Shown here: positions 31,720 to 50,876 of the stretch, one piece after another
How the letters are laid out: each line of letters begins with the position of its first letter
Numbering within the stretch: position 1 is the first letter of the stretch
DNA from: a virus
Taxonomy: Duplodnaviria; Caudoviricetes
Reading direction: 5' to 3' (one strand)
Virus record (IMG/VR): IMGVR_UViG_3300025848_000001
Location: 32,001-96,000 of that record
DNA: 64,000 bases
Program-made: the position numbers and the translations under genes
Notes under the pieces: model-generated
The model's database searches: none
What the model was told of the DNA's origin: nothing
The model's input: only the letters and a program-made list of their open reading frames with translations

Positions 31720-31747
31720 TGATTCCCCCTTTTAAATATTAAGATAG

Positions 31748-31822
31748 TAGGCCTAATCGGATTTGAACCGATACTCGATTGTATATAAGACAATTGCTTT
31801 CACCAGATTAAGCTATAGGCCC
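31748..31822 (-). tRNA. tRNA-Ile, anticodon UAU
   Basis: GGGCCTA/TAGGCCT acceptor; GCTT/AAGC D-stem; ATTGT-CTTATAT-ACAAT anticodon arm; ATCGG-TTCAAAT-CCGAT T-arm; no encoded CCA. Confidence 0.92.
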
Positions 31823-32730: not shown

Positions 32731-33476
32731 AGTTTATCAAAAATAAATTTATAATAACCCCAATGTTTATTATTATATCTTAAGTATGATTGAGATGAAA
32801 CAAAAGTCATAAATTCTGAAATTGATTTTTCTGAAATCCAATGGGCCATCGACTCTTGATCTTCTAAACAAGCCGCTTTAACGTTTTCAGTTATATCTTC
32901 GTAACTTAAAATGTTAAATTTTCCAATTGATTTTTTTATTGCATCAAGTGATCTTAATCCATTATCTAGTGCTTTTTGACTAATTGCATAGTTATCCATT
33001 AAAACTAGTCGACCATTTTTTTTGAGTACTCTATAAGCGTTTTCAAAAAATAAATCTAAGTTATCATATGCATGACAAGATTCTATGCAGATAATTAAAT
33101 CAAATGATTCATCAGGGTAATGTAAATTTTGAGCATCTCCTAAAATATAATTTAAATTATGATGATTACTGTTTTTAGTACAAAATATTATATTTTCTGG
33201 AGTTATATCACAAGCATAATAAGATGTAATAGGTTTATTTTCTATTATCCACTTTGATCCGCCGCCACGGCCACATCCTATTTCTAAAATATTTTTTTCA
33301 TATAAATCAATGTTTTCAAGAGCTTTATTATAAAGTGTTATTTGATGTTTAAATGGTAAATTTTCTACTTCAGGATCTGCAGGACAAAAACCATGATTCA
33401 TAAATGATAATGGGTAGTTTCCCAAAATATCATTTATTTCTTTATATATTTTTTGCTGCATAATTTTATTATACAC
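32727..33476 (-). CDS. Class I SAM methyltransferase
   Basis: FMNHGF, ILEIGCGRGGG, GDAQNL..PDESFD, RVLKKNG. Confidence 0.88.
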   Translation of the reverse strand: MYNKIMQQKIYKEINDILGNYPLSFMNHGFCPADPEVENLPFKHQITLYNKALENIDLYEKNILEIGCGRGGGSKWIIENKPITSYYACDITPENIIFCTKNSNHHNLNYILGDAQNLHYPDESFDLIICIESCHAYDNLDLFFENAYRVLKKNGRLVLMDNYAISQKALDNGLRSLDAIKKSIGKFNILSYEDITENVKAACLEDQESMAHWISEKSISEFMTFVSSQSYLRYNNKHWGYYKFIFDKL

Positions 33477-33722
33477 CCCTTATATTCTAGTCGACTACTT
33501 TTTAGATTTTGAAAAATGTTAATATATTTTTATGATGTATGATACATATATTGTACAAAACGGACATTTTGGATAGTGCGCCCATAATTGTGACGTATCT
33601 CACATGAATTTTGTGTGATGTCAATCACAATGTCCGAATTGTTCGCATTTTCAACTTGCAATTTGTCAGACCCCCATGATAGTATTTTATTATTAGATAG
33701 AAAAAAGAAAGGAAGTTTTATA

Positions 33723-33899
33723 ATGACTTCACTAACATTAGAGCAAAAGATTATCAAGGCTGCTCACCTTATCGCTGACGGAAAGTTAGTATCTTTCCGA
33801 GGTGCTTCGTTTGATACATACATGAAAGTAGAACGCCTTGCTAATCGTATCAAGCAAGAGCGTGAGTTTCCTCAATGCCCATGCGGTGAGTGTGACTAA
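33723..33899 (+). CDS. Early small protein with C-terminal CPCGEC
   Basis: GAAAGGAA RBS; first gene after promoter 33664. Confidence 0.7.
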   Translation: MTSLTLEQKIIKAAHLIADGKLVSFRGASFDTYMKVERLANRIKQEREFPQCPCGECD

Positions 33900-33987
33900 C
33901 CTCACACAATAGACACAGCGTGTCGACTTGATAAAATTGAATAAATCTGAAATAATACTAACTAACTAAATGAAAGAAGGTAGCAAA

Positions 33988-34185
33988 ATGAGTGCTAATC
34001 TATACAATATCGAAAGTCTACTAATAGGCAAGCCTTATCGTAGCCGCTCCGTTGAGGGCGAAATCGTGGAGGCTGAAAAGCATCCTAAGTGTGTCTACTA
34101 TGCGGATGCTGAGGCTTATCTAGTCCGTATCCGTAAGAGCATGGGCGGTTATACATACCGCACAGTAGCGGTGAGTGTGGCATAA
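33988..34185 (+). CDS. Early small protein
   Basis: GAAGG RBS; similar to 35049-35276 (E.LL.G..YRS....G.I..A.K....A.AY.VR.R....T.AVS). Confidence 0.7.
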   Translation: MSANLYNIESLLIGKPYRSRSVEGEIVEAEKHPKCVYYADAEAYLVRIRKSMGGYTYRTVAVSVA

Positions 34186-34283
34186 GTCACACATACCTAA
34201 CGGCGTGTCGTGTTGCGCTTGTCGGTGCGCTATGATAATCTACCGATACAAGATAAAGAATAAAAGAAAAGGAATAGAAAATA

Positions 34284-34427
34284 ATGGATAGATACTTACT
34301 AATAGAACTAGGCTCAGATGGAATTGCCTTTGAAACCGCTCAATTTGATTTCTACGCTTCATGGCTAGGAATTGGAATTGCTATCGTGTCAGTGGTAGCG
34401 TATAAGATTTATAAGAACAGAAAGTAA
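34284..34427 (+). CDS. Early small membrane protein (47 aa)
   Basis: MDRYLLIE...WLGIGIAIVSVVAYKIYKNRK; AAAGGAA RBS. Confidence 0.65.
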   Translation: MDRYLLIELGSDGIAFETAQFDFYASWLGIGIAIVSVVAYKIYKNRK

Positions 34428-34440
34428 AGGAATAAAAATA

Positions 34441-34617
34441 ATGTACGCAATGTCATGGGAAAGAAATACTAGAGACTATAAGTATGAAAGTATCCAGCAT
34501 GGATATGAGGTACTAGACTATCAAGATGAAGAACCACTAGAAATATCACTAGAGGAAATGCTAGAATTAGAAAATGAAGAAATGGAAATGGAAGAATTGG
34601 GTGAGATTTATGGCTAA
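34441..34617 (+). CDS. Early highly acidic protein (58 aa)
   Basis: ...DEEPLEISLEEMLELENEEMEMEELGEIYG; AAAGGAA RBS. Confidence 0.65.
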   Translation: MYAMSWERNTRDYKYESIQHGYEVLDYQDEEPLEISLEEMLELENEEMEMEELGEIYG

Positions 34618-34708
34618 GGATAAATGCTCTATGTGCTATGGTAGAGGTGTGATGTATGTAGGCGATAGGTATGAATATACAATAGAGCCTTGTGAGTGTA
34701 AAGCATGA
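34610..34708 (+). CDS. Early Zn-ribbon micro-protein (32 aa)
   Basis: CSMCYGRG...EPCEC; probable paralog of 35619-35774. Confidence 0.55.
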   Translation: MAKDKCSMCYGRGVMYVGDRYEYTIEPCECKA

Positions 34709-34869
34709 ATAGACTACTAACTAGCCTTGTGCAATTAGCCCTTGTTATACCCGCCCTATACATGGGGCGTATAGCGTGGGAAATGCTAAAAGAAGATGTG
34801 AGAGAACTCACAAAATAAATACGGCGTGTCGGCTTGACAAAAAGCTGATCGCCCGCAACGATTGTGGAG

Positions 34870-34899
34870 TTATCCACAGGTTTACGGGAGTTATCCACA
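34870..34899 (+). promoter_or_regulatory. Two perfect DnaA boxes
   Basis: TTATCCACA at 34870 and 34891, 21 bp apart. Confidence 0.7.
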
Positions 34900-35048
34900 A
34901 CCCCTGGATTTTTGCGACACGCCGAAGATTTTGTGATTTTTATCACACGAATTGAGCGTCTCAAAATATGGAATTACTCGCTAGTAAGTAGAAAAATGTC
35001 GGTGGGCTATGATACCCTTACAGGGTAACAAAATGAAAGGAAAACTAA

Positions 35049-35276
35049 ATGATAAAAAAATATTCTACTGAAAACATTCTTGAGGGAACTTATTATCGTT
35101 CCACTAATCGTTATCCTATGGACGGACTTATCAACTACGCTTCTAAGCGTCATTATTGGGTAGGCGAGGACGCTACTGCCTATGTCGTAAGGGTTCGCCC
35201 TATCTATGACCCATCTAACCCTAAAACATGGGGTAAAGATTTTTGGGCTACTATTGCCGTAAGCCATGCCGACTAA
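35049..35276 (+). CDS. Early small protein
   Basis: GAAAGGAA RBS after promoter 34997. Confidence 0.75.
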   Translation: MIKKYSTENILEGTYYRSTNRYPMDGLINYASKRHYWVGEDATAYVVRVRPIYDPSNPKTWGKDFWATIAVSHAD

Positions 35277-35323
35277 ATGTCGGTGGCTTCCGCTATAATC
35301 TAAATACTACGAAAGGAAAACTA

Positions 35324-35476
35324 ATGAAAATAAGTGTAAATGAAAATTATTACTCAACAGACGAAAGTTTTTTTTGCTGTGATGAACAGGTAATAAAAAT
35401 GTATTGCGAACCTCATGGCGAGTTTATGGGTTGTTATTTTTGCGAATTTGATTATACAGAAAAATGCGAATGCTAG
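35324..35476 (+). CDS. Early Cys-rich small protein
   Basis: ACGAAAGGAA RBS; CC..C.PH...C.FC...CEC. Confidence 0.7.
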   Translation: MKISVNENYYSTDESFFCCDEQVIKMYCEPHGEFMGCYFCEFDYTEKCEC

Positions 35477-35618
35477 GAGATAAAAAAATGGATTTGATCG
35501 ATTTTAGAAATTATGTAAAAGCTGAGCGTGAAGCAACACGCCAGCAAAACCTCACCGCAATTTTGTCGGTGGCTTCTGCTACAATTACAGAAAACAACGA
35601 ACGAAAGGAAAACTAAAA

Positions 35619-35774
35619 ATGAAAGTAATTCACACTCTATCTTTTGACTGCGATACCTGCTATGGAAAAGGTTGGTTATTTTATGGCGGAGGCGAGGACT
35701 ATAATGTTGAGCCTTGCGACTGTAACCCTAACTCTGATTTTGACGGCTCTTTATTTGTAAAGGAAAATGACTAA
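35619..35774 (+). CDS. Early Zn-ribbon small protein
   Basis: CDTCYGKG...EPCDC; AACGAAAGGAA RBS. Confidence 0.65.
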   Translation: MKVIHTLSFDCDTCYGKGWLFYGGGEDYNVEPCDCNPNSDFDGSLFVKEND

Positions 35775-35919
35775 TGAAAAAAAATGTTCTAATCTCTTTT
35801 GTTACTGAGGCTGATACTGATTTGGAAGCGGTATTTGACCTAAACAAAATTTTTCTAGCCTTGCCTGAAAGCGAACTAAAAAAGTTTGATGTATTTGATG
35901 TTTTGGAGGTTGTTGAATA

Positions 35920-36108
35920 ATGATGACACGAAAAGACTATGTTGCTACCGCAGAAATTCTGCGGTATGTATCAGACAAAACTCACCCTGCTGTATTTTCA
36001 AAAATGGTTGTAGATTTTGCTGAGATGTTCGCAAGAGATAATGAAAGATTTGATGCGAATAAATTTTATTCCGCAGCGAATTACAAAATACCAAGTTTTA
36101 GGAGTTGA
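35920..36108 (+). CDS. Early small protein
   Basis: MTRKDY...DNERFD..KF motif, common in phage early regions. Confidence 0.7.
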   Translation: MMTRKDYVATAEILRYVSDKTHPAVFSKMVVDFAEMFARDNERFDANKFYSAANYKIPSFRS

Positions 36109-36109
36109 A

Positions 36110-36256
36110 ATGAAATTACAAAATAAAGAAAGAATAAAAAAAGTTTTGGAAATTCGCCGCAGTAATGCGGCGACACCAATTCCATCTAAAAAAACTTATT
36201 CACGAAAACGAAAACATAAAAAAACCGCTGTTGGTAAAACTATGAATTGGGATTAG
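36110..36256 (+). CDS. Basic small protein
   Basis: RRSNAA.P..SKK.YSRKRKHK; AGGAG RBS. Confidence 0.65.
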   Translation: MKLQNKERIKKVLEIRRSNAATPIPSKKTYSRKRKHKKTAVGKTMNWD

Positions 36257-36440
36257 TTGAATTTTCAACTAATCGCCCGCAAGAACTGTGGGGGCGCCAA
36301 GCTTGTTACGTCAAGTCCAAAACACCCTTAAAATTTGTGATGTTTATCACAAAAATAATTTTTAGACACGCCGATAATAAAACTAATTTGTCAGTAGATT
36401 ACGCTATAATTCTCGCATAACAACAAACGAAAGGTAAAAA

Positions 36441-36692
36441 ATGAAAGACATGACTAGATGGGCATTATTCCCATTCACCGTTGACGGAGTAGAATTCGTA
36501 TCTAAGTTAGATATCGAAGGCTCAATGTATAATCAAGTAAAAAATCTGCCTGCTGGATTATTTACTGCTATGAACGAGGGTGCTATCCGTGAAATAATCG
36601 GTTCAGTATCTACTATGTCTAAATCTGAAATTCAGGCAGAATTAGACCGTGTAAATGAGGGTTATTCGCAGGCTTATTTAGCCCTAGCCTAA
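36441..36692 (+). CDS. Early hypothetical protein
   Basis: CAAACGAAAGG RBS. Confidence 0.75.
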   Translation: MKDMTRWALFPFTVDGVEFVSKLDIEGSMYNQVKNLPAGLFTAMNEGAIREIIGSVSTMSKSEIQAELDRVNEGYSQAYLALA

Positions 36693-36748
36693 TAATGTCG
36701 GTGGGCTAGTGTATAATCTAGCCCACTAACAACAAACGAAAGGGAATT

Positions 36749-37021
36749 ATGTTATCAACTGCTTCTGCTCTACTTGAGGCTACTCAAGAGGGAATAATTG
36801 GCGATGAACAAATGGAACTTGCTTCTTTTATTGTAAATGCTCGCCATGAACTAGACCAAGAACAATTTGCTAAAGCGATGTTTATGTATGCTACTGCTAT
36901 TGCTTCATGCGTAACTGATAAAGTTACTAAAGTATTACTAACTGAAAGTCAATTTAGAGAACTAATTGAAACTATTGACGAAATGGAAACAATGTCTAAT
37001 GAGGTGCTAAATGGGAAGTAA
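36749..37021 (+). CDS. Early hypothetical protein
   Basis: CAAACGAAAGGG RBS. Confidence 0.75.
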   Translation: MLSTASALLEATQEGIIGDEQMELASFIVNARHELDQEQFAKAMFMYATAIASCVTDKVTKVLLTESQFRELIETIDEMETMSNEVLNGK

Positions 37022-37283
37022 TCTTGCTTATGATTTAGCAAATGGCGAAATGGATTTATCTAGTGCTATTGCTATACACTTATCAGCTAATCATTATCCA
37101 CCCGTCCCCAAATTTATGGTGGAGCCGTGTATCGAGGCTATTTTTGCCTATGATGAAGGCGAAATAGATCGTGAAATAGCCATGCCCGAAGGAGTATCCT
37201 ATAAAGGTAGAGATACTGCTCCTGCGTGGGCTATTGTAGAACAGCACCACTTAGATGCGTGGATAACTAACTACGAGGAATAA
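37011..37283 (+). CDS. Early hypothetical protein
   Basis: HL.ANHYPPVP...HHLDAW motif. Confidence 0.75.
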   Translation: MGSNLAYDLANGEMDLSSAIAIHLSANHYPPVPKFMVEPCIEAIFAYDEGEIDREIAMPEGVSYKGRDTAPAWAIVEQHHLDAWITNYEE

Positions 37284-37335
37284 TTGTCGGTGGGGTGGTG
37301 TATAATCACCCTGTCAAACTAACGAAAGGGAAAAA

Positions 37336-37482
37336 ATGCTAGAAATCGGACAAACCTACACAACTACCCAAAGCGGTATTGTTGGAATTATCAAGGCGAT
37401 TGACAATCACCCAAGTGGAGTAAATCGTATTCTCCTTGATGTAAATGGCGCAGAACGCTGGACAAGCGCACCTGCTAAATAA
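37336..37482 (+). CDS. Early small protein (48 aa)
   Basis: MLEIGQTYTTTQSGIVG...; AACGAAAGGG RBS. Confidence 0.65.
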   Translation: MLEIGQTYTTTQSGIVGIIKAIDNHPSGVNRILLDVNGAERWTSAPAK

Positions 37483-37565
37483 CAACTAAATAGGCAGGGC
37501 TCACCAAAATGTCGGTGGGCTCTGCTACAATTTTGCTCAACAAATAACGAAAGGAAAATAAACAA

Positions 37566-37991
37566 ATGGCAAGAAACGGAAAATCTATTAGTGTCAAGAT
37601 TGCTACAACTAAAGTAATCAAAGCACTAGAAACTAAGTTAGCAGAATTAGAGGCTAACTACAAAAAGCAAGATGAAAACGAAGCAAAATACCAAAAGTCT
37701 ATGGAAAAATGGCGTAAAGAAGTTGGTAAGTTTGCTATTGCTAACATCTCAAAGGCAGAAAACTTCCGCACAAATTATCGCTCATGGAACAAAACTCTCA
37801 ATGTAGATTTTGACCTGACCTGTAATGAAGCAGATTTCCCTGCTGAACCTGTGCGTGATTTTGAGGTAATTCATCAGCACACATACAACGAGATGAAAGA
37901 GGAAATCTCTAACGCTATCCGTATTCTCAAGATGACAGATGAGGAAGTTGTAAGCACCTCAACTTACAACGCTATCGCTCGTTATCTCTAA
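37566..37991 (+). CDS. Early hypothetical protein
   Basis: 141 aa; AACGAAAGGAA RBS; followed by a hairpin. Confidence 0.8.
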   Translation: MARNGKSISVKIATTKVIKALETKLAELEANYKKQDENEAKYQKSMEKWRKEVGKFAIANISKAENFRTNYRSWNKTLNVDFDLTCNEADFPAEPVRDFEVIHQHTYNEMKEEISNAIRILKMTDEEVVSTSTYNAIARYL

Positions 37992-38064
37992 TAGCGTGGG
38001 GGCTAGACAAACTCTAGCCCCCTATGCTACAATTCGTATCCCTACTAACAAAGGAAATAAATAA

Positions 38065-38298
38065 ATGCGATTGGCTGAAATATTCGAAGTAGAATACTCA
38101 GTAAGTCCTGGCGGTGTAGATTGCTGGGAAATGGAAGTAAGAACAGGTGTGGGACAACATCACAACTATTCTGAATACAAATCTGCTGGTGAGGCGTTGA
38201 ATCACCTGCTATCGCTCTATCCTGATGAGCAATTAAACATAACAATAACAAATCTAATAACTTACAATAAACTTATTGAAGAAGGTGTTTATGCGTAA
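38065..38298 (+). CDS. Early hypothetical protein
   Basis: AAAGGAA RBS. Confidence 0.7.
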   Translation: MRLAEIFEVEYSVSPGGVDCWEMEVRTGVGQHHNYSEYKSAGEALNHLLSLYPDEQLNITITNLITYNKLIEEGVYA

Positions 38299-38548
38299 TA
38301 GATTTAGAATTGAGATCTATGATGAAAATAAGTTAAATGATTTAACTCTTTATTCTGAGCAAGGCGTAGATAAAGAATACTTAACTGAATTAGTATTTTC
38401 TAATTTATCTCAGTTTTCTGGTAGAGTAAAAGCATATGTCTATGATGAATTAAAAAAGAAAAAGACAGTTGCTTTGTTAATACCTGAAGAAACTGTAATT
38501 AATCTTAAACCAAAACAATTGACTAGAATTGAGTTAGGTTTAATTTAA
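38291..38548 (+). CDS. Early hypothetical protein
   Basis: Coupled ORF; GAAGG RBS. Confidence 0.7.
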   Translation: MRNRFRIEIYDENKLNDLTLYSEQGVDKEYLTELVFSNLSQFSGRVKAYVYDELKKKKTVALLIPEETVINLKPKQLTRIELGLI

Positions 38549-38782
38549 AATAATTGGGGCGGGTTTGAACTGTGTAATCATCTAGATTCCCGCCCCATTC
38601 CAATTTTTGCCCGCAAGAACTGTGGGGGCGCCGAGCTCTTTACGTCAAGTCAAAAACACCCCTTAAATTGTGAGATTAATCACAATGTCCGATTTGCCCT
38701 ATCTTACATCTAATCTGTTGCCAAATGTCGGTGGCGTAGTGTATAATTCAGATTCAATCTAACAATGAAAGGAAATAAATTC

Positions 38783-39793
38783 ATGGCTCATAACCTTGAA
38801 ACTAATGGCGACGAAGTCGCTTTCGCCCTACGTGGCACACCTGCTTGGCATAATCTTGCCAATCGTATCTTCAATCAAGATGAAGATGTCTCAACTCAAT
38901 TGATGTTAGACGAAGCAAAACTTTCTAATTGGAATGTTCGCTTGTCTCCAATTACTGATTTTATTCCAGAAAATTGGAATGACACATCAGATTCACAATT
39001 GGTAATTCGTACCAATCCATTCAATAATGGTACCGATGTTCTTTCTACTGTCGGCTCACGATATAAAGTTGTTCAGAATGAAGAATTATTTTCATTCGCT
39101 GACAATATCCTAGATGGCGATTCTCGCTGTGCTTGGGAATCTGCTGGCTCTCTCAAGGGTGGTAAAGTTGTATTCGGCTCTCTTACTGTCCCTCGTGAAA
39201 TGGTATTAGACCCACAAGGTGCTAACGATAAAACAAAATTGTATCTTATCGTTTGGACATCTCACGATGGTTCTGTCGCTGTTCAAGCAGCAATCACACC
39301 TGTTCGTGTTGTATGCCAAAACACTTTGAATCTCGCAATGCGTTCTGCTAAGCAATCTTTCAAGATTCGCCATACTCAGACTGCTGAAGGTAAGATTCAA
39401 ATTGCTCGTGAAACTCTTGGTCTAACTCTTGGATACTTTGACGCATTCGAGAAAGAGGCTCAGGAATTGTTCAAATCAGAAATTACTGATAAGCAATTCT
39501 ATGATTTGATTCGCACAATTTATCCTAAGCCTGCGGAAGATTCTTCCAAATTGGCTCAGACTAAGTGGGAAAATAAAGTTATTCTTCTTGATGACCTTTA
39601 TTTCAATTCACCTACTAATGCTAACATCAAGGGTACAAAATGGGGTGCTTTCAATGCGCTTACTGAACGCCTTGATTATTTCCGTCCGACACGGAAAAAT
39701 AATTCAGAATCTAAGTGGGCTTCCGCTTCAGGTTTTGACCCGATTATTACTGCTGAGAAGAATAAAATTCTTCAAGTTGTAAAATCATTCTAA
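38783..39793 (+). CDS. DUF932 / TIGR03299-type phage-plasmid protein
   Basis: MAH...PAWH.L, YKVVQNEELF, ESAGSLKGG, SHDGS, TPVRVVCQNTL, RHT, GTKWGAFNALTE. Confidence 0.85.
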   Translation: MAHNLETNGDEVAFALRGTPAWHNLANRIFNQDEDVSTQLMLDEAKLSNWNVRLSPITDFIPENWNDTSDSQLVIRTNPFNNGTDVLSTVGSRYKVVQNEELFSFADNILDGDSRCAWESAGSLKGGKVVFGSLTVPREMVLDPQGANDKTKLYLIVWTSHDGSVAVQAAITPVRVVCQNTLNLAMRSAKQSFKIRHTQTAEGKIQIARETLGLTLGYFDAFEKEAQELFKSEITDKQFYDLIRTIYPKPAEDSSKLAQTKWENKVILLDDLYFNSPTNANIKGTKWGAFNALTERLDYFRPTRKNNSESKWASASGFDPIITAEKNKILQVVKSF

Positions 39794-39798
39794 AGAAT

Positions 39799-39818
39799 GG
39801 GGCCCCGCAAGGGGCCCC
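39799..39818 (+). terminator. GC hairpin with GCAA tetraloop
   Basis: GGGGCCCC-GCAA-GGGGCCCC directly after the stop codon. Confidence 0.75.
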
Positions 39819-39974
39819 TCCTCTTCGATCTAATTTGACAAAGCTGCAAAAATGCCCGCAGAAGGTAAAGGCGAAAAATGTGTTTTACGTCACATTTTAA
39901 AAATCCCCTAAAAAGCCTGGACTTTTGTCAGTCAGGTCCGCTATAATACTCCATATAACAACGAAAGGAATAAA

Positions 39975-40439
39975 ATGGAAAAAGTAACACAAGATGCATA
40001 TGCTCCGCACCAATTGATAACTCTTAAGCAGATTACTGGCGAGGATGTTGAATTCGAGTTATATAAAGTAACTGAGTTAGAAACAGTTTTGCATGATGCA
40101 AAGAGTAGAATTAATCAATTAACTGGACGCTTAGAGGCACAGGAAAAGCAAATTGGTTTAATTTTAAATAAGATGACGTCAGATGAATGGTATTCATCCA
40201 GCGTTGAAAAGTTTGAGGTATTGTCAGACCTATGTGATATTCTTGGGTTTGAACCAAAGCAAAGCATTCGTATTACTGCTACCGTTGAGGTTGAAGTTGA
40301 CTACGATTGTCCACTTGATGAAATTGAAGACTTTGATGCAGGAGATTTCTTACAAGATGTTTTAACAATTGATACATATCATGGTGATGCTATGGTTTAT
40401 TCATACAACGTAGAATCAGCAGATTGGGCTACGCACTAA
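39975..40439 (+). CDS. Early acidic protein
   Basis: AACGAAAGGAAT RBS. Confidence 0.75.
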   Translation: MEKVTQDAYAPHQLITLKQITGEDVEFELYKVTELETVLHDAKSRINQLTGRLEAQEKQIGLILNKMTSDEWYSSSVEKFEVLSDLCDILGFEPKQSIRITATVEVEVDYDCPLDEIEDFDAGDFLQDVLTIDTYHGDAMVYSYNVESADWATH

Positions 40440-40651
40440 TGTATTATCAACTACAGGCACCCACTAGCGCAGCCTGCAAGGCTGCCTATTGGGAGGCAGA
40501 GTTTTCAGGACTTGACCCATATTGGCTTGAGTCTAATGTATTTGAATTAGGAACAGGAAGCATTGAAAAAGTTTCTGCCTTGATTTCCAAATATAATCTT
40601 GATATACTAGTTGAATCAGATTATCAACCAACTGGTTATACAAGGAGGTAG
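40439..40651 (+). CDS. Early hypothetical protein
   Basis: TAATG-coupled start. Confidence 0.65.
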   Translation: MYYQLQAPTSAACKAAYWEAEFSGLDPYWLESNVFELGTGSIEKVSALISKYNLDILVESDYQPTGYTRR

Positions 40652-40652
40652 T

Positions 40653-40817
40653 ATGGACTACAAAGACGGTTTTGAAGACGGAGTTAAGTTTACTCGTGAA
40701 GTAATCATTGCTAATATTCGTAAATGGGCTGAGGATTCTATTCTTGGCGAAGAAGGAGCAATTATGGACAGCGTTGCAGATAAAATCGAATTTGGGACAT
40801 TAGACAATGACCTCTGA
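40653..40817 (+). CDS. Early hypothetical protein
   Basis: AGGAGG RBS. Confidence 0.65.
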   Translation: MDYKDGFEDGVKFTREVIIANIRKWAEDSILGEEGAIMDSVADKIEFGTLDNDL

Positions 40818-41028
40818 GGATCTTACAATAGAATGGATTAAATGCGATTCTTGTTCCGCCCGTGCAGCTTGGCTTGCACGTGGTACTAATGGTGAGCTTA
40901 CATTTTGTGGACACCATTTAAATAAGAATAAGTCGGGCCTTGACAGTTGGGCCTATGAAATTATAGAATTGGGTAAAGAAGAACTACCTAAGAAACGAAC
41001 TAGACGAAAGGCGGTAAAAAATGGGTGA
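40807..41028 (+). CDS. Zn-finger protein
   Basis: CDSC...L.FCGHH motif found in actinobacterial and actinophage proteins. Confidence 0.7.
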   Translation: MTSEDLTIEWIKCDSCSARAAWLARGTNGELTFCGHHLNKNKSGLDSWAYEIIELGKEELPKKRTRRKAVKNG

Positions 41029-41425
41029 CAGAGCAAATTTTGTTTTTGTACAACCAAGCGGAGAGACCATTGTCCTATATGGACATTGGGCAGGACATAA
41101 CATGTTGGAGCATTTAGGCGAGGCTGTAGCCAAGGCACAGTCACGTTGGTCGGACCCTTCATATGCAACACGTATAGCAATTAGTCAAATGATTGGCGAC
41201 GGTTGGGGCATGGAAACTGGATGGGGACTGCAAGTAAATGAGATATCAGACAATGAACACAAGATTCCTGTGATTAATTGGCTGGAACAGACTATGTCTC
41301 TTCATGAGGAAGATTCACATTTCAACGAATCTAATAAGGTCCGTGGAATGAAGAATGAAGCGATATTCACAATTGATTTGCGAACGTTTGTAGAGAAATA
41401 CACGGACGCAAAACTTTTGGTATAA
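41021..41425 (+). CDS. Early hypothetical protein
   Basis: MGDRANF...LYGHWAG...RWSDPSYATRI. Confidence 0.8.
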   Translation: MGDRANFVFVQPSGETIVLYGHWAGHNMLEHLGEAVAKAQSRWSDPSYATRIAISQMIGDGWGMETGWGLQVNEISDNEHKIPVINWLEQTMSLHEEDSHFNESNKVRGMKNEAIFTIDLRTFVEKYTDAKLLV

Positions 41426-41556
41426 TATTAATAATGAGGTGCCGCTACTAGCGATTCCGCAAGTGGTTAACTAAAGCAGCATTTACTTAAATTCCTTTCG
41501 TTTGGCTAGCAGCCTCATATTAATAGGGCCCCTGGGATCCAGGGGCCTTTCCTTTT
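41426..41556 (+). ncRNA. Candidate small RNA antisense to the early-gene ribosome-binding leader
   Basis: Extended -10 TGGTATAAT at 41418; closing stem; ATTCCTTTCGTTTG at 41491-41504; terminator 41527-41556; no usable ORF. Confidence 0.6.
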
Positions 41557-41705
41557 GCCCGCAGTAACTGAGGGTAGCTAAAGCTTGTTACGTTGTCAAG
41601 TCAAAATCCCCTAAATTTTGATCAGCTGCGATGTGTCCCACATCATATAGACAAATGTCAGTGGGGGGATGTATAATAATGCTCCATAACGAGAAAGGAA
41701 TATAT

Positions 41706-42452
41706 ATGCCAAACTGGGTATATAACGGTCTAACTATTGAAGGTAATCCTTCAGAAATTAATGACCTTGTAGCACAATTAAATAAACCATTCAAAATGGT
41801 CCATGATTCATGGAACATGGAAAATGGACAAATGCAGAAGAAATTAACAACATATCCAAATCCTGTATTTGCATTCTATAACATCTATAACTATATTGAA
41901 GACGGTGTTACTGATTATGAATATCTTGCACAACCCGACCATTCTTTACCAATTGAAGAATCAATGAAATTTGCAACAAATGATTGGTATAACTGGAATG
42001 TTCGTAATTGGGGAACAAAATGGGATGTTGCTGTATCTTCAGATGATAAATATCCTGATACATATACTGAGGGACCTACTTCTAATGGTGAGAATCTAGT
42101 TGTATATTATAACTTTAATACTGCTTGGTCTCCTCCGTTTCCTGCCATTGCTAAATTATCAGGCCAATACCCAACTCTTCTATTTACACTTAGTTATGAA
42201 GAAGAAACAGGTTGGGGTGGCGAATGTGAATTCCTTCGCAATGAAATGATATCTAATTCAGAGTATTCTAATAAATGTAGAGACTGTGATTCAGAAGATA
42301 CATTAGATTATTGTGAGAATGATTGTGGAGAAATTTGCTCTGCTTGTAATTATTTAGGAGAGGCAGACCTTGAATGTGTCAAAGAATGTCAGACCCATAA
42401 GATATACTTGGATGAAAATCACGTACCTGAATACAGAATGGAGCAAATATAG
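41706..42452 (+). CDS. DUF1281/YubB ferredoxin-like protein
   Basis: MPNWVYN, DWYNWNVRNWGTKWD, FNTAWSPP, YEEETGWGG. Confidence 0.8.
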   Translation: MPNWVYNGLTIEGNPSEINDLVAQLNKPFKMVHDSWNMENGQMQKKLTTYPNPVFAFYNIYNYIEDGVTDYEYLAQPDHSLPIEESMKFATNDWYNWNVRNWGTKWDVAVSSDDKYPDTYTEGPTSNGENLVVYYNFNTAWSPPFPAIAKLSGQYPTLLFTLSYEEETGWGGECEFLRNEMISNSEYSNKCRDCDSEDTLDYCENDCGEICSACNYLGEADLECVKECQTHKIYLDENHVPEYRMEQI

Positions 42453-42670
42453 TGGAAGCGTTTACAGATACTCTAGGAGAACATATCCTAGGAGCAATTC
42501 AAGTAGATATTGAAGAACATCTATTTGAACAATGGAATCAATCTAATTTAGATGAAGGCACGGAATATGCTGAATTTAGATTTATTCAATTTGCACCTGA
42601 TAGTGTAAAACAATCATACAATGAATTCTATGGATATAAAGAAGGAGATGAATACTATGTTGGGATATAG
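42452..42670 (+). CDS. Early acidic protein
   Basis: GTG start with GGAG RBS. Confidence 0.65.
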   Translation: MEAFTDTLGEHILGAIQVDIEEHLFEQWNQSNLDEGTEYAEFRFIQFAPDSVKQSYNEFYGYKEGDEYYVGI

Positions 42671-42811
42671 TACAAAGGATGTATTTGATATGCAGAATGC
42701 TATTGAATTGGCTCTTCCTTATATTCCCGCCAATTCTTCAAATGATTTAGTTCGTGAAGGATTGTTATCTGCGTTTGATTTGTTAGAAGGACTAATTGTG
42801 GAAGGAAGAAT

Positions 42812-43009
42812 GTGAATCAGTTAATTGAATATATAAAGCTTCATGTAATTAGTTTGGAACAAGACCAGGAAGATGTTTCTAATGAAATGGAAAAACTGGA
42901 TATGAACTCTAAAGATTATATTGAATTAGACTTTGAATATAATCATCTAGGAGGACAGATTCTTTCTGCCCGCCATATTTTGTCAGTGGCGGAGGATATA
43001 CTAGGATGA
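42812..43009 (+). CDS. Early acidic protein
   Basis: Coupled ORF; its 3' end contains promoter 42981. Confidence 0.6.
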   Translation: MNQLIEYIKLHVISLEQDQEDVSNEMEKLDMNSKDYIELDFEYNHLGGQILSARHILSVAEDILG

Positions 43010-43287
43010 TGTACTCAATGGAACTGGAACCACGCCTGCAGAAGCAGGTTGACATGAACATCTCTGGAACAGATATTTTGCACGGGGAACTCAAAAACCT
43101 TATCTATGAGGCTGAAGCAGAACTGGCTCGTGCACAGGAAATAGAAGAAGAGAACGACTATGGCGACGCCATGGAATCTATGGAAAGAAAGTATTGGGAG
43201 GGCCAAGTGGACGGTCTCTCACATGTGTATGCATTAACATATCAACTTGCATTCGCAATTAACGAAAGGACAAAAGCACGTGGCTGA
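43006..43287 (+). CDS. Early acidic protein
   Basis: YGDAMESMERKYWEG motif. Confidence 0.7.
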   Translation: MMYSMELEPRLQKQVDMNISGTDILHGELKNLIYEAEAELARAQEIEEENDYGDAMESMERKYWEGQVDGLSHVYALTYQLAFAINERTKARG

Positions 43288-43609
43288 TATAGATCTAAAT
43301 AAACTATATAACGATATGGTTGATATTAATGATAGGATTACCAAACTTCCTGTATTCCCGTCCCTTGGCTGGGTATGGACCTTTGACATCCTTAGAGATA
43401 TCTTTGACAACGCCGATACTGGCTATGACGAAGCAATCACTGAAGGCGTCACATTACAACAAATCTTTAATAAGTTCTATGAAGACATCGACAAGTTGGA
43501 CATGAATATGGACCAAGGTGGGGAGATGTTACAGGAGACAATCAGAGACTGGATGAGAGACAACGACTTCCTCGTTGCCCTGGATGATGACGGGTGGCTA
43601 GATGACTAG
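43280..43609 (+). CDS. Early highly acidic protein
   Basis: GTG start after AACGAAAGGA; Asp-rich. Confidence 0.7.
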   Translation: MADIDLNKLYNDMVDINDRITKLPVFPSLGWVWTFDILRDIFDNADTGYDEAITEGVTLQQIFNKFYEDIDKLDMNMDQGGEMLQETIRDWMRDNDFLVALDDDGWLDD

Positions 43610-43778
43610 AAAAGACTATAAAGTATTTGGGGACAAATTGTCCAAATACTACGTAACAATCAATGCTGAGTCCCCTGAGATTGCTTGGGATGCGGCGGCA
43701 GGCATGGATACACATCAGTGGGAACAAATCCCAACTGATTATATAATCGAACCATACGCAGTAGAAGAAATAGAATAG
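43602..43778 (+). CDS. Early small protein (58 aa)
   Basis: MTRKDYKVFG...; coupled to the previous gene. Confidence 0.55.
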   Translation: MTRKDYKVFGDKLSKYYVTINAESPEIAWDAAAGMDTHQWEQIPTDYIIEPYAVEEIE

Positions 43779-43922
43779 ATCTAAGAGCTTTGTACGGAAT
43801 CGGACATTTCGGACATGGCTCTGGGCTAACGGGCCCAAAAATTGCTTTACGTAGGCTATTTACAAATTCGTAAATTTCCTATATAATATACATAATAACT
43901 CATCATGAAAGGATGAAAACAA

Positions 43923-44072
43923 ATGACTACACCAACAACTACACGTGAATATCTAAAGGCCCAGGGAATTACCGTGGGTAAGCGTGGCCGCTTCTCAGCT
44001 GCAGCAAAGAATGCAATCTCAGAAGCCTCTAAGAAGGGCGTTGTCTTCTCAGACAAGAAGAACGTCAAGTAA
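43923..44072 (+). CDS. Stand-alone Lsr2-type DNA-binding domain (49 aa)
   Basis: TREYLKAQGITVGKRGRFS with the RGR AT-hook; GAAAGGA RBS; own promoter TTTACA-17-TATAAT; hairpin after. Confidence 0.75.
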   Translation: MTTPTTTREYLKAQGITVGKRGRFSAAAKNAISEASKKGVVFSDKKNVK

Positions 44073-44159
44073 TAACAATCGTGGTCCCCTACAGCCTCCT
44101 ACGGGGCTTGTGGGGGATTCACTTTTTTGATATAATGCTAACAAAGAAAGGCGGATATA

Positions 44160-44495
44160 ATGGCAAAATCAAATGAAACTAAAGTAGCAGAAAAGTTGGC
44201 GGAAGGTCTAAATGATGTCACATTCTCACCAGCAGTTCTAGCAAATATCCTAACTACATATTATCCAATATATACCCAAGACAGGCTAATGGAGTTAGTC
44301 AAACATATAATCAAATATAATAAAATGCGTATGGAAAATGAATGGGACAAAGGCAATACATCCGAAGGATTATTGATGGCGGACCTGCTAGATGATGTCC
44401 TAACAGCCAAATATGGGGCGGAAGCATATGAATTCCAAAACATAGAATCTAGAACAAGAGATCCAAAATATGCAATGGATGAAGATAGCTTCTAA
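44160..44495 (+). CDS. Hypothetical protein
   Basis: GAAAGG RBS; TGATATAAT promoter. Confidence 0.75.
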   Translation: MAKSNETKVAEKLAEGLNDVTFSPAVLANILTTYYPIYTQDRLMELVKHIIKYNKMRMENEWDKGNTSEGLLMADLLDDVLTAKYGAEAYEFQNIESRTRDPKYAMDEDSF

Positions 44496-44518
44496 TTAAA
44501 TAAATATAAAGCCCAATT

Positions 44519-44554
44519 AGCACATATAGCTTTAATTAGTTATATGTGCTTTTT
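44519..44554 (+). terminator. Terminator ending the plus-strand block
   Basis: AGCACATATAGCT...AGTTATATGTGCT followed by a T-run. Confidence 0.7.
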
Positions 44555-46075: not shown

Positions 46076-46672
46076 TTAGTCATTATTATCCTCCAATAAA
46101 ACTAAATTTTCTTTAATTAATGAAACTGATATATCGTCAGCTATTATAGATATGTCCTTCACATATAGGGATATTGATTCTTCTCTATGGGATTCTAGAT
46201 TTTTCGTACTATTCCCGCCTATAAAAATCATACATGGACTAATTTTATCATCAAATTCATAGGAAGTTATCAAATTGTTATCAATATAAAAAGATACTGA
46301 TTTTTCATTTAATAATAAATCTAGGTTATGCCAATCTTTATCTTCTATTGGACACCCCTCCCATATTTTTAATTCAAACCCATTATTTCTAATGTAAGTT
46401 ATTAAATTTTCATTTTGGTAGACTAAAGATGCAAATGAATGATATTCTGCACTGTGTTTAAAATCAACATCAATTATTGCAGCATTGTTTATAGGATTAT
46501 CTGAATATTTAAATTTCATGTTAAATTTAAGTGTTTTATCAAAATTTATCAAATCATATGAGCCCAAACATCCAAATTTTTTAAAACCAGATAAGCCTAT
46601 CTCATCAGATAATATTTTTAAATTATTTATGTTTGCCCATTCTAACATTTTGTTATTTTCCTTTAAATCCAC
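46076..46672 (-). CDS. Hypothetical protein, possible ConA-like fold
   Basis: DKDWHNL...VSFYIDN...IFIGG. Confidence 0.5.
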   Translation of the reverse strand: MDLKENNKMLEWANINNLKILSDEIGLSGFKKFGCLGSYDLINFDKTLKFNMKFKYSDNPINNAAIIDVDFKHSAEYHSFASLVYQNENLITYIRNNGFELKIWEGCPIEDKDWHNLDLLLNEKSVSFYIDNNLITSYEFDDKISPCMIFIGGNSTKNLESHREESISLYVKDISIIADDISVSLIKENLVLLEDNND

Positions 46673-47117
46673 CTATATTTGGATCCATTAAGCCTGGCTC
46701 TAATCCATTGGGATATTTACTATAGAATACTCCTTCGGCTTCCCGCCCCGCCTGTTCTACAACAAATCCATTTTCACGATCAAATAAAACATAATCTAGC
46801 TCTTGAACATCAAAGTATTGCTTGAATATTCTTAGTGCCTTATGTAGGTCAAGTGTTCCGCATGTATAGAGATCAAATTGAATTAAGCCTGGATCTATCT
46901 CATCCCAAATATGAAATGCAATATGGCTAGTTTCAATCATAACTACTGCGGTTAGACCTTTATTGCCTTCTGCATCAACATATGATGCAAATGGTCCTTT
47001 AATAATTTTCATATCAATCTGGTTAACTAAGAATTTTAGAAATTCAATACCCTGTTCTTCGGTATTCATTGGGTTCTTTACTTTAGCGTTAACGAGTAAA
47101 TGCTTATGATATATCAT
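46653..47117 (-). CDS. speD: S-adenosylmethionine decarboxylase proenzyme
   Basis: HKHLL, GLTAVVMIETSHIAFHIWDE, DLYTCG. Confidence 0.85.
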   Translation of the reverse strand: MIYHKHLLVNAKVKNPMNTEEQGIEFLKFLVNQIDMKIIKGPFASYVDAEGNKGLTAVVMIETSHIAFHIWDEIDPGLIQFDLYTCGTLDLHKALRIFKQYFDVQELDYVLFDRENGFVVEQAGREAEGVFYSKYPNGLEPGLMDPNIGGFKGK

Positions 47118-47375
47118 TATGCTCCTCACATACAAATATTATTCGATACCCGTCCGAATTTATACCAACGGATGCCTTCTTACAAAAATTGCATACAGAT
47201 GCTATTTTAACATTTCTATCCCTCAAATGCTGCAGATATGCAGCCTGAAATGGATCTTTCGGAAGAGGGTAATTGCTCACTATCCAATTTTACAATTTAT
47301 GACAGGTACTGTCAATATACCCTTCTACTTTTCCGCTTCACTTTTTGAGCTCCAAAATAGTATAATATGTGTATT

Positions 47376-47948
47376 ATGAGTAATAAATTATTAGATTTAA
47401 TTTCAGAAGCAAAAGATAGCAATAAAACCTATGCAGTTTTTAAAAATTGGAGAACCCCGCCAGATACAAAAATAATATCAGAATTACATGCAAATAATAA
47501 AGAAAGATATGCAAGAACTTCTATAATAAGTAAATACAATGAAAAAGAAATTGATTCTTTTTTAAATGAATGCTTATCTGTATACGATATACCAGAATAT
47601 GCTTTTTACATTATAAAAGGAATGTCTGGCCATGGACATAGTACACACAAAGATCCATACGATATAATTCACTGGCAGTGTAGTGGTTCTACTGAATGGA
47701 AAATTGGCAAAAAAGAAATAGGTAAATTATGGGAAGCTGGGCAAGCAAAAAATGAAAAAGATGGTTTTACAAAATGGAAAGTTAGTTGGCTAGAAGAACC
47801 AGATACTTTTATATTAGAGCCAGGTGACATAATGTGGTTTAGAGGAGACGCTGGCACTGATAGTGGCGCTTGGCATAGCACTCTTAATTTAGATGATAAA
47901 TATTCAATAGTTTTCGATGCTGGCAAAGAAGAATTTCCAGAATATTAA
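47376..47948 (+). CDS. JmjC/cupin-type oxygenase
   Basis: HKDPYDIIHWQCSG..EW, LEPGDIMWF, WH. Confidence 0.7.
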   Translation: MSNKLLDLISEAKDSNKTYAVFKNWRTPPDTKIISELHANNKERYARTSIISKYNEKEIDSFLNECLSVYDIPEYAFYIIKGMSGHGHSTHKDPYDIIHWQCSGSTEWKIGKKEIGKLWEAGQAKNEKDGFTKWKVSWLEEPDTFILEPGDIMWFRGDAGTDSGAWHSTLNLDDKYSIVFDAGKEEFPEY

Positions 47949-47952
47949 TCAT

Positions 47953-48549
47953 TTACACATAAGCAATATCTGTACATATTCTAGATCCGCTAGTTACTTC
48001 AGTTACAAGATGGATTGTATTTGAATCAAAAACTATTGCTTCTCCAGATAGTGGTTTTATTTTAATGTCATTTTTATTAACTTCAAATGTTTGATTTAAA
48101 AAATCAACACCAACACCACTTTCATTTTTAAAAATTACCTCTCCGCCTTCATAATCGCTAGTGAAATATAAAAGTATTGTTATATTTGGAACCTTTTTGC
48201 CATCTTTTGAATCCCAAGAATCACTGTGAAACCCAATGCTAGACCCTATGTTCCAGGTTTTAATCCAGTATACTTCTTCTCCGTCAAGACGATAATCGTT
48301 TAAATTTTTATTAAAATGATTTGTATATATTTTTAAAATATTTTTTGTGATCGGATTTAAAATTTCAAAAATATTTTTTTCTGGATAATTTAAATCTTTA
48401 GTTACTTCTACGTAATCACCACATCTAAAATGCTTGATTTCAAATTTTTCAGATTTTGACAGCAAAAGAACTTTTTCGATATCTTCTTTAGAAATACAAT
48501 TATTTAAATAAAGACCTTTATCATATATAATGCTATTTAATTCAAACAT
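47953..48549 (-). CDS. 2OG-Fe(II) oxygenase
   Basis: HSD...DYEGGE...HLV.EV.SGSR. Confidence 0.85.
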   Translation of the reverse strand: MFELNSIIYDKGLYLNNCISKEDIEKVLLLSKSEKFEIKHFRCGDYVEVTKDLNYPEKNIFEILNPITKNILKIYTNHFNKNLNDYRLDGEEVYWIKTWNIGSSIGFHSDSWDSKDGKKVPNITILLYFTSDYEGGEVIFKNESGVGVDFLNQTFEVNKNDIKIKPLSGEAIVFDSNTIHLVTEVTSGSRICTDIAYV

Positions 48550-48727
48550 ATATATATTATAGCAAATTATTTATTATTCTTAATAATATCAACAGCAAGC
48601 AATTTAAATCCAAGTGCGTTTATTTGATGTGGAGCATTTAAATCTATTTCATCTAATAACTTTAAAATGCGTTCTTGTTCTTGCTTTACTGCCTTCTTAC
48701 AGCCTTGACATGGACATAACCAGGCCA

Positions 48728-48943
48728 TTACTTGATTCTTTTTACTTTAGCCCAAAGACGCTCATGAATATAATATCCTAAAGCTTCCCACGCAATGTAT
48801 CCTAAAGCACCCAGAGTAGCATATTCATACTCTACATCGCCAGTTATAGCATAAGTAACAATAGCAATAATTCCTGCTACTCCAATTAAATGAAATGTTT
48901 CCCAGCTTAATGTTTTTAATAATGTTCTTTTATTTGATTCCAT
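48728..48943 (-). CDS. DUF2061-like membrane protein
   Basis: ESNKRTLLKTLSW...YYIHERLW. Confidence 0.75.
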   Translation of the reverse strand: MESNKRTLLKTLSWETFHLIGVAGIIAIVTYAITGDVEYEYATLGALGYIAWEALGYYIHERLWAKVKRIK

Positions 48944-49274
48944 TTTTAATTAGCCTAAAGGCATCTCCTGTTTCGTAATCTTCATAATCCCAATCGAGAT
49001 TATATTTTTCCCAGTAAGGTACACCTTCTTCGTCATAATCATTCCAGCCATCCCCGCTCATATCAAAACTAAACTCATAAAATGTACCAAATTTATAATA
49101 TACAGGCCAAGTAATTTTCCAAATAAATGAATGCATCTTGTACTGCCACCCAAAATTTTCTAGTTCGTCTTCGTAGGATATCTTCATAATTGCCCATCCT
49201 GCAATTGAACCACACATATTTGCAAACCAAAGTAAGGGAAGAACTTTAGTTTTATTTACTTTTAAATTACTCAT
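48930..49274 (-). CDS. Hypothetical protein
   Basis: 114 aa ORF. Confidence 0.6.
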   Translation of the reverse strand: MSNLKVNKTKVLPLLWFANMCGSIAGWAIMKISYEDELENFGWQYKMHSFIWKITWPVYYKFGTFYEFSFDMSGDGWNDYDEEGVPYWEKYNLDWDYEDYETGDAFRLIKNGIK

Positions 49275-49437
49275 GGTCTATCTCTTCTTCCCAGTCCATC
49301 TCCCAAGACTCCAAAGACTTAGCAAGATCGTCAAATGCTCTGTATGCGGTAAATGCTGCTGCAAATGCCGCCAATGCTATTATACTAATTTTTTTCATAT
49401 ACATATATTATACTTTATTTATATAACCTAGTCAATA

Positions 49438-50214: not shown

Positions 50215-50876
50215 TTAATTAACCCAACTATTCCAATATTTAATAAAGATTTTTTTATAGGAAATTGTGGAACTTCTGGGGAAAGCCAATCATGAAGACA
50301 CGTCACTATCGCATATTTTGTGCCAGATGTTACTGGGTGAGCTTTATGAGTATAAGCAAAATTAGAAGGAAAAAAAATCATGCTATTTGCTTCTGGTTTT
50401 AATTTCAAATTAAAATTTGTAAATTCTATTTCTCCTCCATCATAATCATCATTTAAATATATTACAACAGAAACAGATCTTGCTGTTTCTGTTGATCCAT
50501 CAAAATGAGGTTTATATTCTTCATTATTACTATATTTTAAAACTGTATAAGGCTCATGATAAAGTTCAAATGGAATGTTATATCTATTTTTATACCAAGC
50601 AATTGCTTCCTCCACTTTGGTAAAAATTAAATTATGAATTTTTTTTGCATTTTCGTTTCCAAATTTTGCATTTTTAGTTATAGCCATAGTGTAATTAGTT
50701 CTTACATTTTGGTCTGATCCATATCCAATTGTACCCGCTTTTTCCCAACTCCATGACTCTTGTTTTAAATTTAATTTATTTTCTTTTTCAAGAATATTTA
50801 TAATTTCATGTGAATCAGAAAAAACATCTTTAAATACTACTATGCAGCTACCTAGATCTTTATCGGGGTTTATCAT
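50211..50876 (-). CDS. 2OG-Fe(II) oxygenase
   Basis: HFD...YLNDDYDGGE...FPS..H.AHPV.SGTKY. Confidence 0.88.
   Translation of the reverse strand: MINPDKDLGSCIVVFKDVFSDSHEIINILEKENKLNLKQESWSWEKAGTIGYGSDQNVRTNYTMAITKNAKFGNENAKKIHNLIFTKVEEAIAWYKNRYNIPFELYHEPYTVLKYSNNEEYKPHFDGSTETARSVSVVIYLNDDYDGGEIEFTNFNLKLKPEANSMIFFPSNFAYTHKAHPVTSGTKYAIVTCLHDWLSPEVPQFPIKKSLLNIGIVGLIK

Follow-up and report, generated by a model that had tools for sequence, protein, structure and literature searches.

The 64,000-nucleotide stretch analysed here (the window) comprises bases 32001-96000 of the 119,837-bp phage record IMGVR_UViG_3300025848_000001 from IMG/VR. It has a GC content of 34% and its genes include those for the portal, a protease, the capsid, fibres, and a ribonucleotide reductase; the ends of the complete record overlap by 127 bp. 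According to a strand map, the 120-kb genome is coded almost wholly on the minus strand, and its sole sizeable plus-strand block, here called the island, is a compact group of about 35 small genes that ends at a terminator-like hairpin (Table 1). The only family matches in the island are DUF932, DUF1281_C, and DUF7455, and searches of 28 island proteins against Pfam and PHROGs found no DNA-binding domain. The island probably represents a host-takeover or counter-defence module. It contains a dense array of sites that match the promoters of PafBC, a transcriptional activator known from mycobacteria, and this array is the subject of the present study.

The published 22-nt PafBC consensus, TGTCRG-N10-TAnnnT, has 16 matches in the window where 0.96 are expected, all of them on the plus strand between positions 33664 and 43002. 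The entire 119,837-bp genome contains the same 16 sites and none elsewhere on either strand; the array is thus packed into 9.3 kb, and the other 110 kb are devoid of it. A scan with a position weight matrix found no further or degenerate copies. A preliminary description of this DNA had reported 13 copies of the slightly narrower pattern (W)TGTC(R)G-N10-TAnnnT. The array itself was confirmed and turned out to be stronger than described, but the count has to be corrected: the narrower pattern occurs 15 times on the plus strand (33663-43002; 0.52 expected), a number reached in none of 100 shuffled sequences, and the published consensus raises the total to 16 by including the site at 34387, which escapes the narrower pattern because of its W restriction. 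As previously stated, the spacing between the box and the -10 element is invariant, measuring 10 nt in 16 of 16 cases, and TGTC(G/A)G with its invariant GTC is present at every site. Fourteen promoters share a leader with a Shine-Dalgarno (SD) sequence, so that an SD and a start codon follow 25-44 nt after the -10; the SD is of the GAAAGGA type, with GGAG at 42387. This agrees with the earlier remark that a ribosome-binding site and a gene closely follow most copies. Two sites had been noted within coding sequence reading ILSVA, and both (35564 and 42981) are indeed in frame; with 34387, 40222, and 42387, however, the number of sites inside open reading frames (ORFs) increases to five. A -35-like hexamer is present at three window sites, and candidates for ordinary -35/-10 promoters are few in the island, for example before genes 38065, 41021, and 43923.

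Table 1. Promoter-type sites, CRP/GlxR-type boxes, and other features of the window (positions are those of the window)
Feature	Position	Strand	Details
PafBC-type promoter, ACC class	33664-33685	+	TGTCAGACC..TAGTAT; first of the island; ATG 33723
PafBC-type promoter	34220-34241	+	TGTCGGTGC..TAATCT; ATG 34284
PafBC-type site, the 16th	34387-34408	+	TGTCAGTGG..TAAGAT; within ORF 34284-34427; 33 nt before ATG 34441
PafBC-type promoter	34997-35018	+	TGTCGGTGG..TACCCT; ATG 35049
PafBC-type promoter	35278-35299	+	TGTCGGTGG..TATAAT; ATG 35324
PafBC-type promoter	35564-35585	+	Final codons of ORF 35464-35616, in frame ILSVA; ATG 35619
PafBC-type promoter	36389-36410	+	TGTCAGTAG..TATAAT; ATG 36441
PafBC-type promoter	36696-36717	+	TGTCGGTGG..TATAAT; ATG 36749; 9-bp inverted repeat around -10
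PafBC-type promoter	37285-37306	+	TGTCGGTGG..TATAAT; ATG 37336
PafBC-type promoter	37510-37531	+	TGTCGGTGG..TACAAT; ATG 37566
PafBC-type promoter of DUF932 gene (38783-39793)	38726-38747	+	Also -35-like TTGCCA at 18-nt spacing
PafBC-type promoter	39926-39947	+	TGTCAGTCA..TATAAT; ATG 39975
PafBC-type site, ACC class	40222-40243	+	Within ORF 39975-40439; no nearby SD/start; function least certain
PafBC-type promoter	41656-41677	+	TGTCAGTGG..TATAAT; ATG 41706 (DUF1281_C protein)
PafBC-type site, ACC class	42387-42408	+	Close to end of ORF 41706-42452; 44 nt before GTG 42452
PafBC-type promoter	42981-43002	+	Final codons of ORF 42812-43009, in frame ILSVA; ATG 43006/43009
CRP/GlxR-type perfect palindrome	33589-33604		TGTGA-N6-TCACA
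CRP/GlxR-type perfect palindrome	33614-33629		50 nt upstream of TGTC of promoter 33664
CRP/GlxR-type perfect palindrome	33891-33906		Upstream of -35/-10-like promoter for gene 33970
CRP/GlxR-type perfect palindrome	34797-34812		TGTGA-N6-TCACA
CRP/GlxR-type perfect palindrome	34932-34947		65 nt upstream of TGTC of promoter 34997
CRP/GlxR-type perfect palindrome	36336-36351		53 nt upstream of TGTC of promoter 36389
CRP/GlxR-type perfect palindrome	38669-38684		57 nt upstream of TGTC of DUF932 promoter
Island	33589-44550	+	First CRP-like box to terminator-like hairpin 44519-44550; ~35 small genes
Terminator-like hairpin, strong	41525-41549	+	11 pairs, 8 of them G-C; inside island
Terminator-like hairpin	44519-44550		Island end
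WhiB-family gene	63689-64000	-	103 aa; Cys-X..-C-X2-C-X5-C and GVWGG; actinophage marker

In mycobacteria, PafBC is a heterodimer of WYL-domain proteins that is switched on by single-stranded DNA (ssDNA). By a mechanism termed sigma adaptation, it occupies the space between the DNA and domain 4 of sigma and thereby lets the SigA RNA polymerase (RNAP) start at promoters that have only a -10 element. Chromatin immunoprecipitation sequencing yielded the in vivo consensus tGTCgg(N10)tA(N3)T; the box lies at -23 to -28, a -35 element is missing, and arginines of PafB read the GTC triplet (PMC8635444). In vitro, ssDNA of 10-12 nt suffices for activation, which requires no new protein synthesis (PMC11804915). 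The identification of the phage motif as the mycobacterial RecA-NDp/PafBC promoter, made in the preliminary description, holds up, as its sequence and geometry equal the consensus published in PMC8635444. Like the established PafBC promoters (e.g., recA P1; PMC8635444, PMC11804915), the phage sites have the 22-nt consensus with its fixed spacing and invariant GTC, a SigA-type -10, and the same two spacer classes. They differ in that they are located on a lytic-type phage instead of a chromosome and serve orphan genes instead of repair genes. Moreover, the phage -10 is near the consensus TATAAT and often accompanied by TGn, and a CRP-type box goes with most of the sites. As to the -35, a similar hexamer is absent from about two thirds of the sites in the phage family and present at a third.

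The spacer classes are defined by the triplet after TGTCRG and offer a comparison with host promoters. Upstream of recA, and in the sense direction, the strict motif was found in 45 of 60 sampled Actinomycetia genomes, including low-GC streamlined ones, and on the opposite strand in 0 of 60. A recA presence tally also covered the genomes G007, G015, G024, G030, G032, G036, and G043, on which no statement made here is based. At the 42 distinct host recA sites the triplet is TGG in 14 cases and ACC in 11. In this phage, TGG accounts for 10 of the 16 sites and ACC for 3, and in the phage family the shares are 49% and 14%, respectively (612 distinct sites in the listed loci described below). That the phage copies the PafBC site of its host, and not the site of some other factor, is best supported by this agreement, since the triplet is not part of the search pattern. 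The ACC class was also noted as a subclass of its own, TGTCAGACC(CC), which is represented at 33664, 40222, and 42387, with two of these three window copies inside ORFs, and in the relatives G162 (six copies) and G163; its counterpart among the host recA promoters is the TGTCGGACCC class.

Related arrays were sought in IMG/VR with the pattern ATGTCGGTGG-N7-TAYAAT, which occurs at no fewer than 119 loci; all figures for relatives rest on the matches listed. Among the 119 listed loci, 83 have at least four same-strand copies of the relaxed motif (maximum 18), and 645 distinct sites were collected, all with the 10-nt spacing. The GC content of the array loci is 35-45%, and a reversed control pattern gave almost no matches. 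Each of five near-complete relatives (104-112 kb) has one same-strand cluster that contains about 9-15 of its copies. The family consensus is AA(A/T)TGTCRGTGG-N4-TGn-TAtAAT. A conserved pairing of promoter and gene is that of DUF932: in 36 of 48 relatives, with protein identities as low as approximately 50%, the motif precedes the start of the orthologue by 49-67 nt. Alignment of the sequences upstream of DUF932 shows conservation solely of the box, the -10, and the leader with the SD. At promoter 36696 of the phage itself, a perfect 9-bp inverted repeat (GTGGGCTAG / CTAGCCCAC; 36701-36726) brackets the -10. Such repeats were dismissed as a general feature because repeats of at least 8 bp occur at only about 2% of the family sites.

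An extension of the scan to other actinophages, as suggested in the preliminary description, had a divided outcome, with arrays in the listed IMG/VR relatives and none in 14 cultured actinophages (five Streptomyces phages, three Rhodococcus phages, and six mycobacteriophages). The Streptomyces relatives StarPlatinum and Francob contain no copy of the motif. TM4, D29, Bxz1, Rosebush, Barnyard, and Wildcat, and likewise Grayson, Weasels2, Trina, Ankus, Bmoc, and Annadreamy, contain 0-2 copies per strand, which is the level of the reversed-pattern control. A search of high-GC viral contigs for the motif with a host-like -10 (TASCGT) gave 120 loci, of which 112 have a single site and none more than three. 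Because cultured actinophages lack arrays and the high-GC contigs mostly have single sites, the arrays are, on this distribution, a derived trait of the freshwater family rather than a general habit of actinophages.

A second type of box recurs in the island. Seven perfect TGTGA-N6-TCACA palindromes, which match the consensus of CRP/GlxR regulators, lie between 33589 and 38684, all of them in the island, where about 0.06 would be expected by chance. Further boxes with one mismatch were seen at 34176, 39879, and 42225. The listed loci of the relatives contain 205 perfect CRP-type boxes versus one for the reversed control, and in 158 of the 205 cases a PafBC-type site follows within 120 nt downstream. 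The distances between the two boxes peak at 34, 44, 54, and 64-65 nt, that is, with a period of 10 nt. Since phased CRP/GlxR-type boxes precede the PafBC-type sites, the island promoters are, as judged from their sequence, composite and consist of a CRP-type box, a PafBC-type box, often an extended -10, a leader, and an SD. Class I CRP/GlxR promoters similarly have a palindrome upstream of the core promoter at distances that follow a 10-nt period. In the phage, however, the box centres are at about -54.5, -64.5, -74.5, and -84.5 from the presumed transcription start site (-61.5 and -72.5 in E. coli), and the boxes are paired with a PafBC-type core. A protein with an HTH_Crp_2 domain (230-aa frame) is encoded once in each of three candidate-host-like genomes, and a six-frame search found none in six phage genomes (this phage and the five near-complete relatives).

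The gene content also bears on the host. The WhiB-family gene of the phage exceeds the Pfam cut-off; of the 14 genomes used as controls, only Corynebacterium has a match to the WhiB family. Its closest homologues are WhiB genes of Streptomyces and Rhodococcus phages, and WhiB is found in 14 of 20 long listed relatives, including all five with a completeness of 90% or more. Portals of Streptomyces phages of about 130 kb (Stanwilliamsviridae) share 57-60% identity with that of this phage. Because of the WhiB gene, and because its nearest cultured relatives are Streptomyces phages, this virus is by its gene content an actinophage; no near-identical cultured phage emerged when the island was compared by megablast with 50,697 phage records. 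The host is probably a freshwater, low-GC actinobacterium. The same DNA was found in freshwater and riverine metagenome runs, and freshwater habitats are rich in low-GC Actinobacteria (PMC10202952). The sole genome-contig match of the phage WhiB is CAZKLA010000002.1, a 57-kb contig in a metagenome-assembled genome (MAG) of an "uncultured Aquiluna sp.", which might represent either a host or a mis-binned phage. This MAG contains tandem WYL genes resembling those of PafB and PafC. The WhiB match has 58% identity, but the MAG lacks the motif array, and the match is therefore no evidence for a host.

Five complete Actinomycetia genomes of 1.4-1.5 Mb contain two adjacent WYL genes each and are regarded as candidate hosts rather than as the identified host. 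In size and GC content they resemble "Ca. Nanopelagicales"; the GC content of three of them is 46-48% over the first 3 kb. The WYL pair of one genome, G118, gives full-length matches to PafB and PafC of M. smegmatis (PDB 7P5X; E values 3e-41 and 1.5e-28), and the DNA-reading arginines of the RMFER motif are kept in G118 PafB, the one PafB that was aligned. Thus, pafBC and the motif at recA, which the preliminary description had presumed for the host lineage, both exist in Actinomycetia, low-GC genomes included. In the three candidate-host genomes that were scanned, TTGTCRG-N10-TAnnnT occurs at 5-9 sites per genome, that of recA among them. With 16 sites in 9.3 kb, the phage island therefore exceeds a whole candidate-host genome.

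A reader of the box encoded by the phage itself was sought by six-frame Pfam searches, which found no match to WYL, Sigma70_r2, or HTH_Crp_2 in this phage and a single sub-threshold match to HTH_11 (13.9 bits). WYL is also lacking in 11 relatives. Thus, the searches for WYL, Sigma70_r2, HTH_11, and HTH_Crp_2 revealed no phage activator, the MotA and AsiA families not having been searched. With host PafB and PafC as queries, tblastn gave one match in the phage (E = 0.1), which was rejected as spurious because its product is a 2OG-Fe(II) oxygenase.

The explanation favoured here, with moderate confidence, is that the 16 sites are SigA promoters that are read by the PafBC of the host through sigma adaptation, are modulated by the host Crp/GlxR, and drive a host-takeover or counter-defence module. 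The host SigA RNAP would start at all 16 sites, most of which would offer it a "-26 element" in place of a usable -35, and the phage would bring no recognisable activator or sigma factor of its own. In this 11-kb block of orphan genes, nearly every transcription unit would have been placed under a PafBC box, and most units would also have a host-type CRP/GlxR box on one face of the helix. Since the PafBC box precedes nearly every unit and no phage activator was found, the block would fire upon activation of the host PafBC. The activating ssDNA might derive from phage DNA ends, from replication, from host DNA breakdown, or from prior UV damage. As PafBC would already be at hand in the host and needs only 10-12 nt of ssDNA for its activation, a response within minutes of infection would be possible. 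Work cited in a recent paper reportedly links pafBC to mycobacteriophage resistance. More tentatively, and with somewhat less than even confidence, the explanation may be widened to the whole family of freshwater actinophages of about 105-120 kb. These phages may lack a factor of their own for the module and may ignite the island via the host PafBC and Crp/GlxR, with infection or damage as the signal, which would make them the first natural viral case of sigma adaptation.

Several observations weigh against host PafBC as the reader and have to be considered together with the alternatives. Among 644 sites of the listed family, a -35-like hexamer (at least four of six positions of TTGACA) is found at 17 nt in 19% and at 18 nt in 14%, where the background is 3-5%, and 72% have a G at -14, the mark of an extended -10. 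Because of these elements, some promoters may fire without PafBC, and many promoters of the island type could work without any activator, the box serving another purpose. Immediately upstream of TGTC, 73% of the phage sites have an A, whereas most host sites have a T or a C there. Pfam searches could miss a small, divergent phage DNA-binding protein, the 14 cultured actinophages have no arrays, and it would seem hazardous for the earliest genes to depend on a damage signal for their ignition. The roughly one third of sites with a -35-like hexamer and the frequent G at -14 would also suit constitutive SigA promoters in which the box is an operator, used for shut-off or tuning by a phage repressor or by a negatively acting PafBC. 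In the DUF932 promoter, a TTGAC at 18 nt is kept across the relatives, and early-gene shut-off is common in lytic phages. Such an operator is nevertheless judged unlikely: a -35-like hexamer is missing from about two thirds of the 644 sites, the box lacks symmetry and is the same as the site of a known activator, and no repressor candidate was found. A similarly low probability is assigned to a factor that is encoded by the phage or delivered with the virion and reads the TGTCRG box, be it a mimic of PafBC, as the preliminary description had considered, or a MotA/AsiA-like pair for "sigma appropriation". In its favour, the middle promoters of T4 have the same layout, in which no -35 is present and the activator box precedes the -10 by about 12 nt (PMC8635444); most proteins of the island and the genome are orphans; and the base preceding TGTC differs from that of the host sites. 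Yet an unrelated protein would have had to arrive independently at the 9-nt consensus, the spacing, and both spacer classes of the host recA promoters, and six-frame searches of the phage gave no significant match to WYL, sigma, HTH_11, or Crp-type HTH families, with WYL also missing from the 11 relatives.

Two further explanations deviate more strongly from the one favoured here. If the host were not an actinobacterium, the likeness to the PafBC motif would be a coincidence. The GC content of 34%, which is far below that of most Actinobacteria, would fit such a host, but the WhiB gene above the Pfam cut-off with its orthologues in Streptomyces and Rhodococcus phages, the portal related to those of Streptomyces phages, and the freshwater habitat with its abundant low-GC Actinobacteria (PMC10202952) make this very unlikely. 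It is even harder to regard the sites as repeats without promoter function, such as signals for recombination, replication, or packaging, or a selfish repeat. Arrays of repeats can have such roles in phages and nothing more specific speaks for them here, whereas the strict single orientation, the fixed distance to a TAnnnT box, the leader, SD, and start codon behind 14 of the 16 sites, and the promoter-gene pairing conserved across relatives would all be left unexplained; the probability of this explanation is considered minimal.

Known phage systems resemble the proposed control by host PafBC in part. The T4 middle promoters also belong to a class of phage genes where an activator box replaces the -35 and the host sigma-70/SigA is used. 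The difference is that T4 encodes the activator MotA and the co-activator AsiA, whereas no such phage factor was found here and the box matches the site of the host's own activator. The host-takeover module of the Bacillus phage SPO1 and the early regions of T5 and T4 consist of compact small orphan genes, all or nearly all with a strong promoter and a strong SD of their own. The island is likewise a compact block of small orphan genes with promoters and SD sequences for nearly every unit; in SPO1, T5, and T4, however, the promoters are plain -35/-10 promoters of the host sigma-A or sigma-70, and no host stress activator takes part.

PafBC and sigma adaptation have so far been known only as a repair switch of the host. 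Full-text literature searches gave no report of phage genes under PafBC-type control, consistent with the earlier statement that such control is not known to have been described in phages. If the favoured explanation is true, a host alarm for foreign or damaged DNA would have been turned into the ignition of a phage, a new twist in the conflict between phage and host. The listed loci would then provide a natural set of several hundred PafBC-type promoters (645 sites) for dissecting the mechanism, and this set varies in its two spacer classes, the optional -35, and the phased CRP boxes. It would also offer a first entry point to the gene regulation of phages that infect the uncultured, globally dominant Actinobacteria of lakes.

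Some additional observations concern the island and its surroundings. At the last promoter, the ATG at 43006 or 43009 is only 4 or 7 nt past the -10 TATACT, an arrangement of leaderless mRNAs that is common in Actinobacteria. Metatranscriptome contigs from four runs, which belong to four different studies, cover most of the island, and none lies on 33000-33400; DNA carry-over is possible in these data and neither transcript starts nor ends are readable in them, so that they demonstrate neither transcription nor its start sites. The intergenic unit 41417-41556 has an extended -10 (TGGTATAAT), ends in the strong hairpin 41525-41549, and contains AATTCCTTTCGTTTGG, the reverse complement of the leader and SD common to the island genes. 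This unit may encode a putative small RNA that masks ribosome-binding sites of the island. Directly 3' of the DUF932 gene, at 39799-39818, is the palindrome GGGGCCCC-TTGC-GGGGCCCC, which resembles a terminator on the minus strand and may act in both directions. The only tRNA gene of the window is a tRNA-Ile with the anticodon TAT (31747-31822, minus strand). To the right of the island, a region with genes on both strands (46076-50876) contains a cluster of 2OG-Fe(II) oxygenases (47953-48549 and 50211-50876), together with a JmjC-like protein (47367-47948, plus strand) and an S-adenosylmethionine decarboxylase-like protein (46653-47135).

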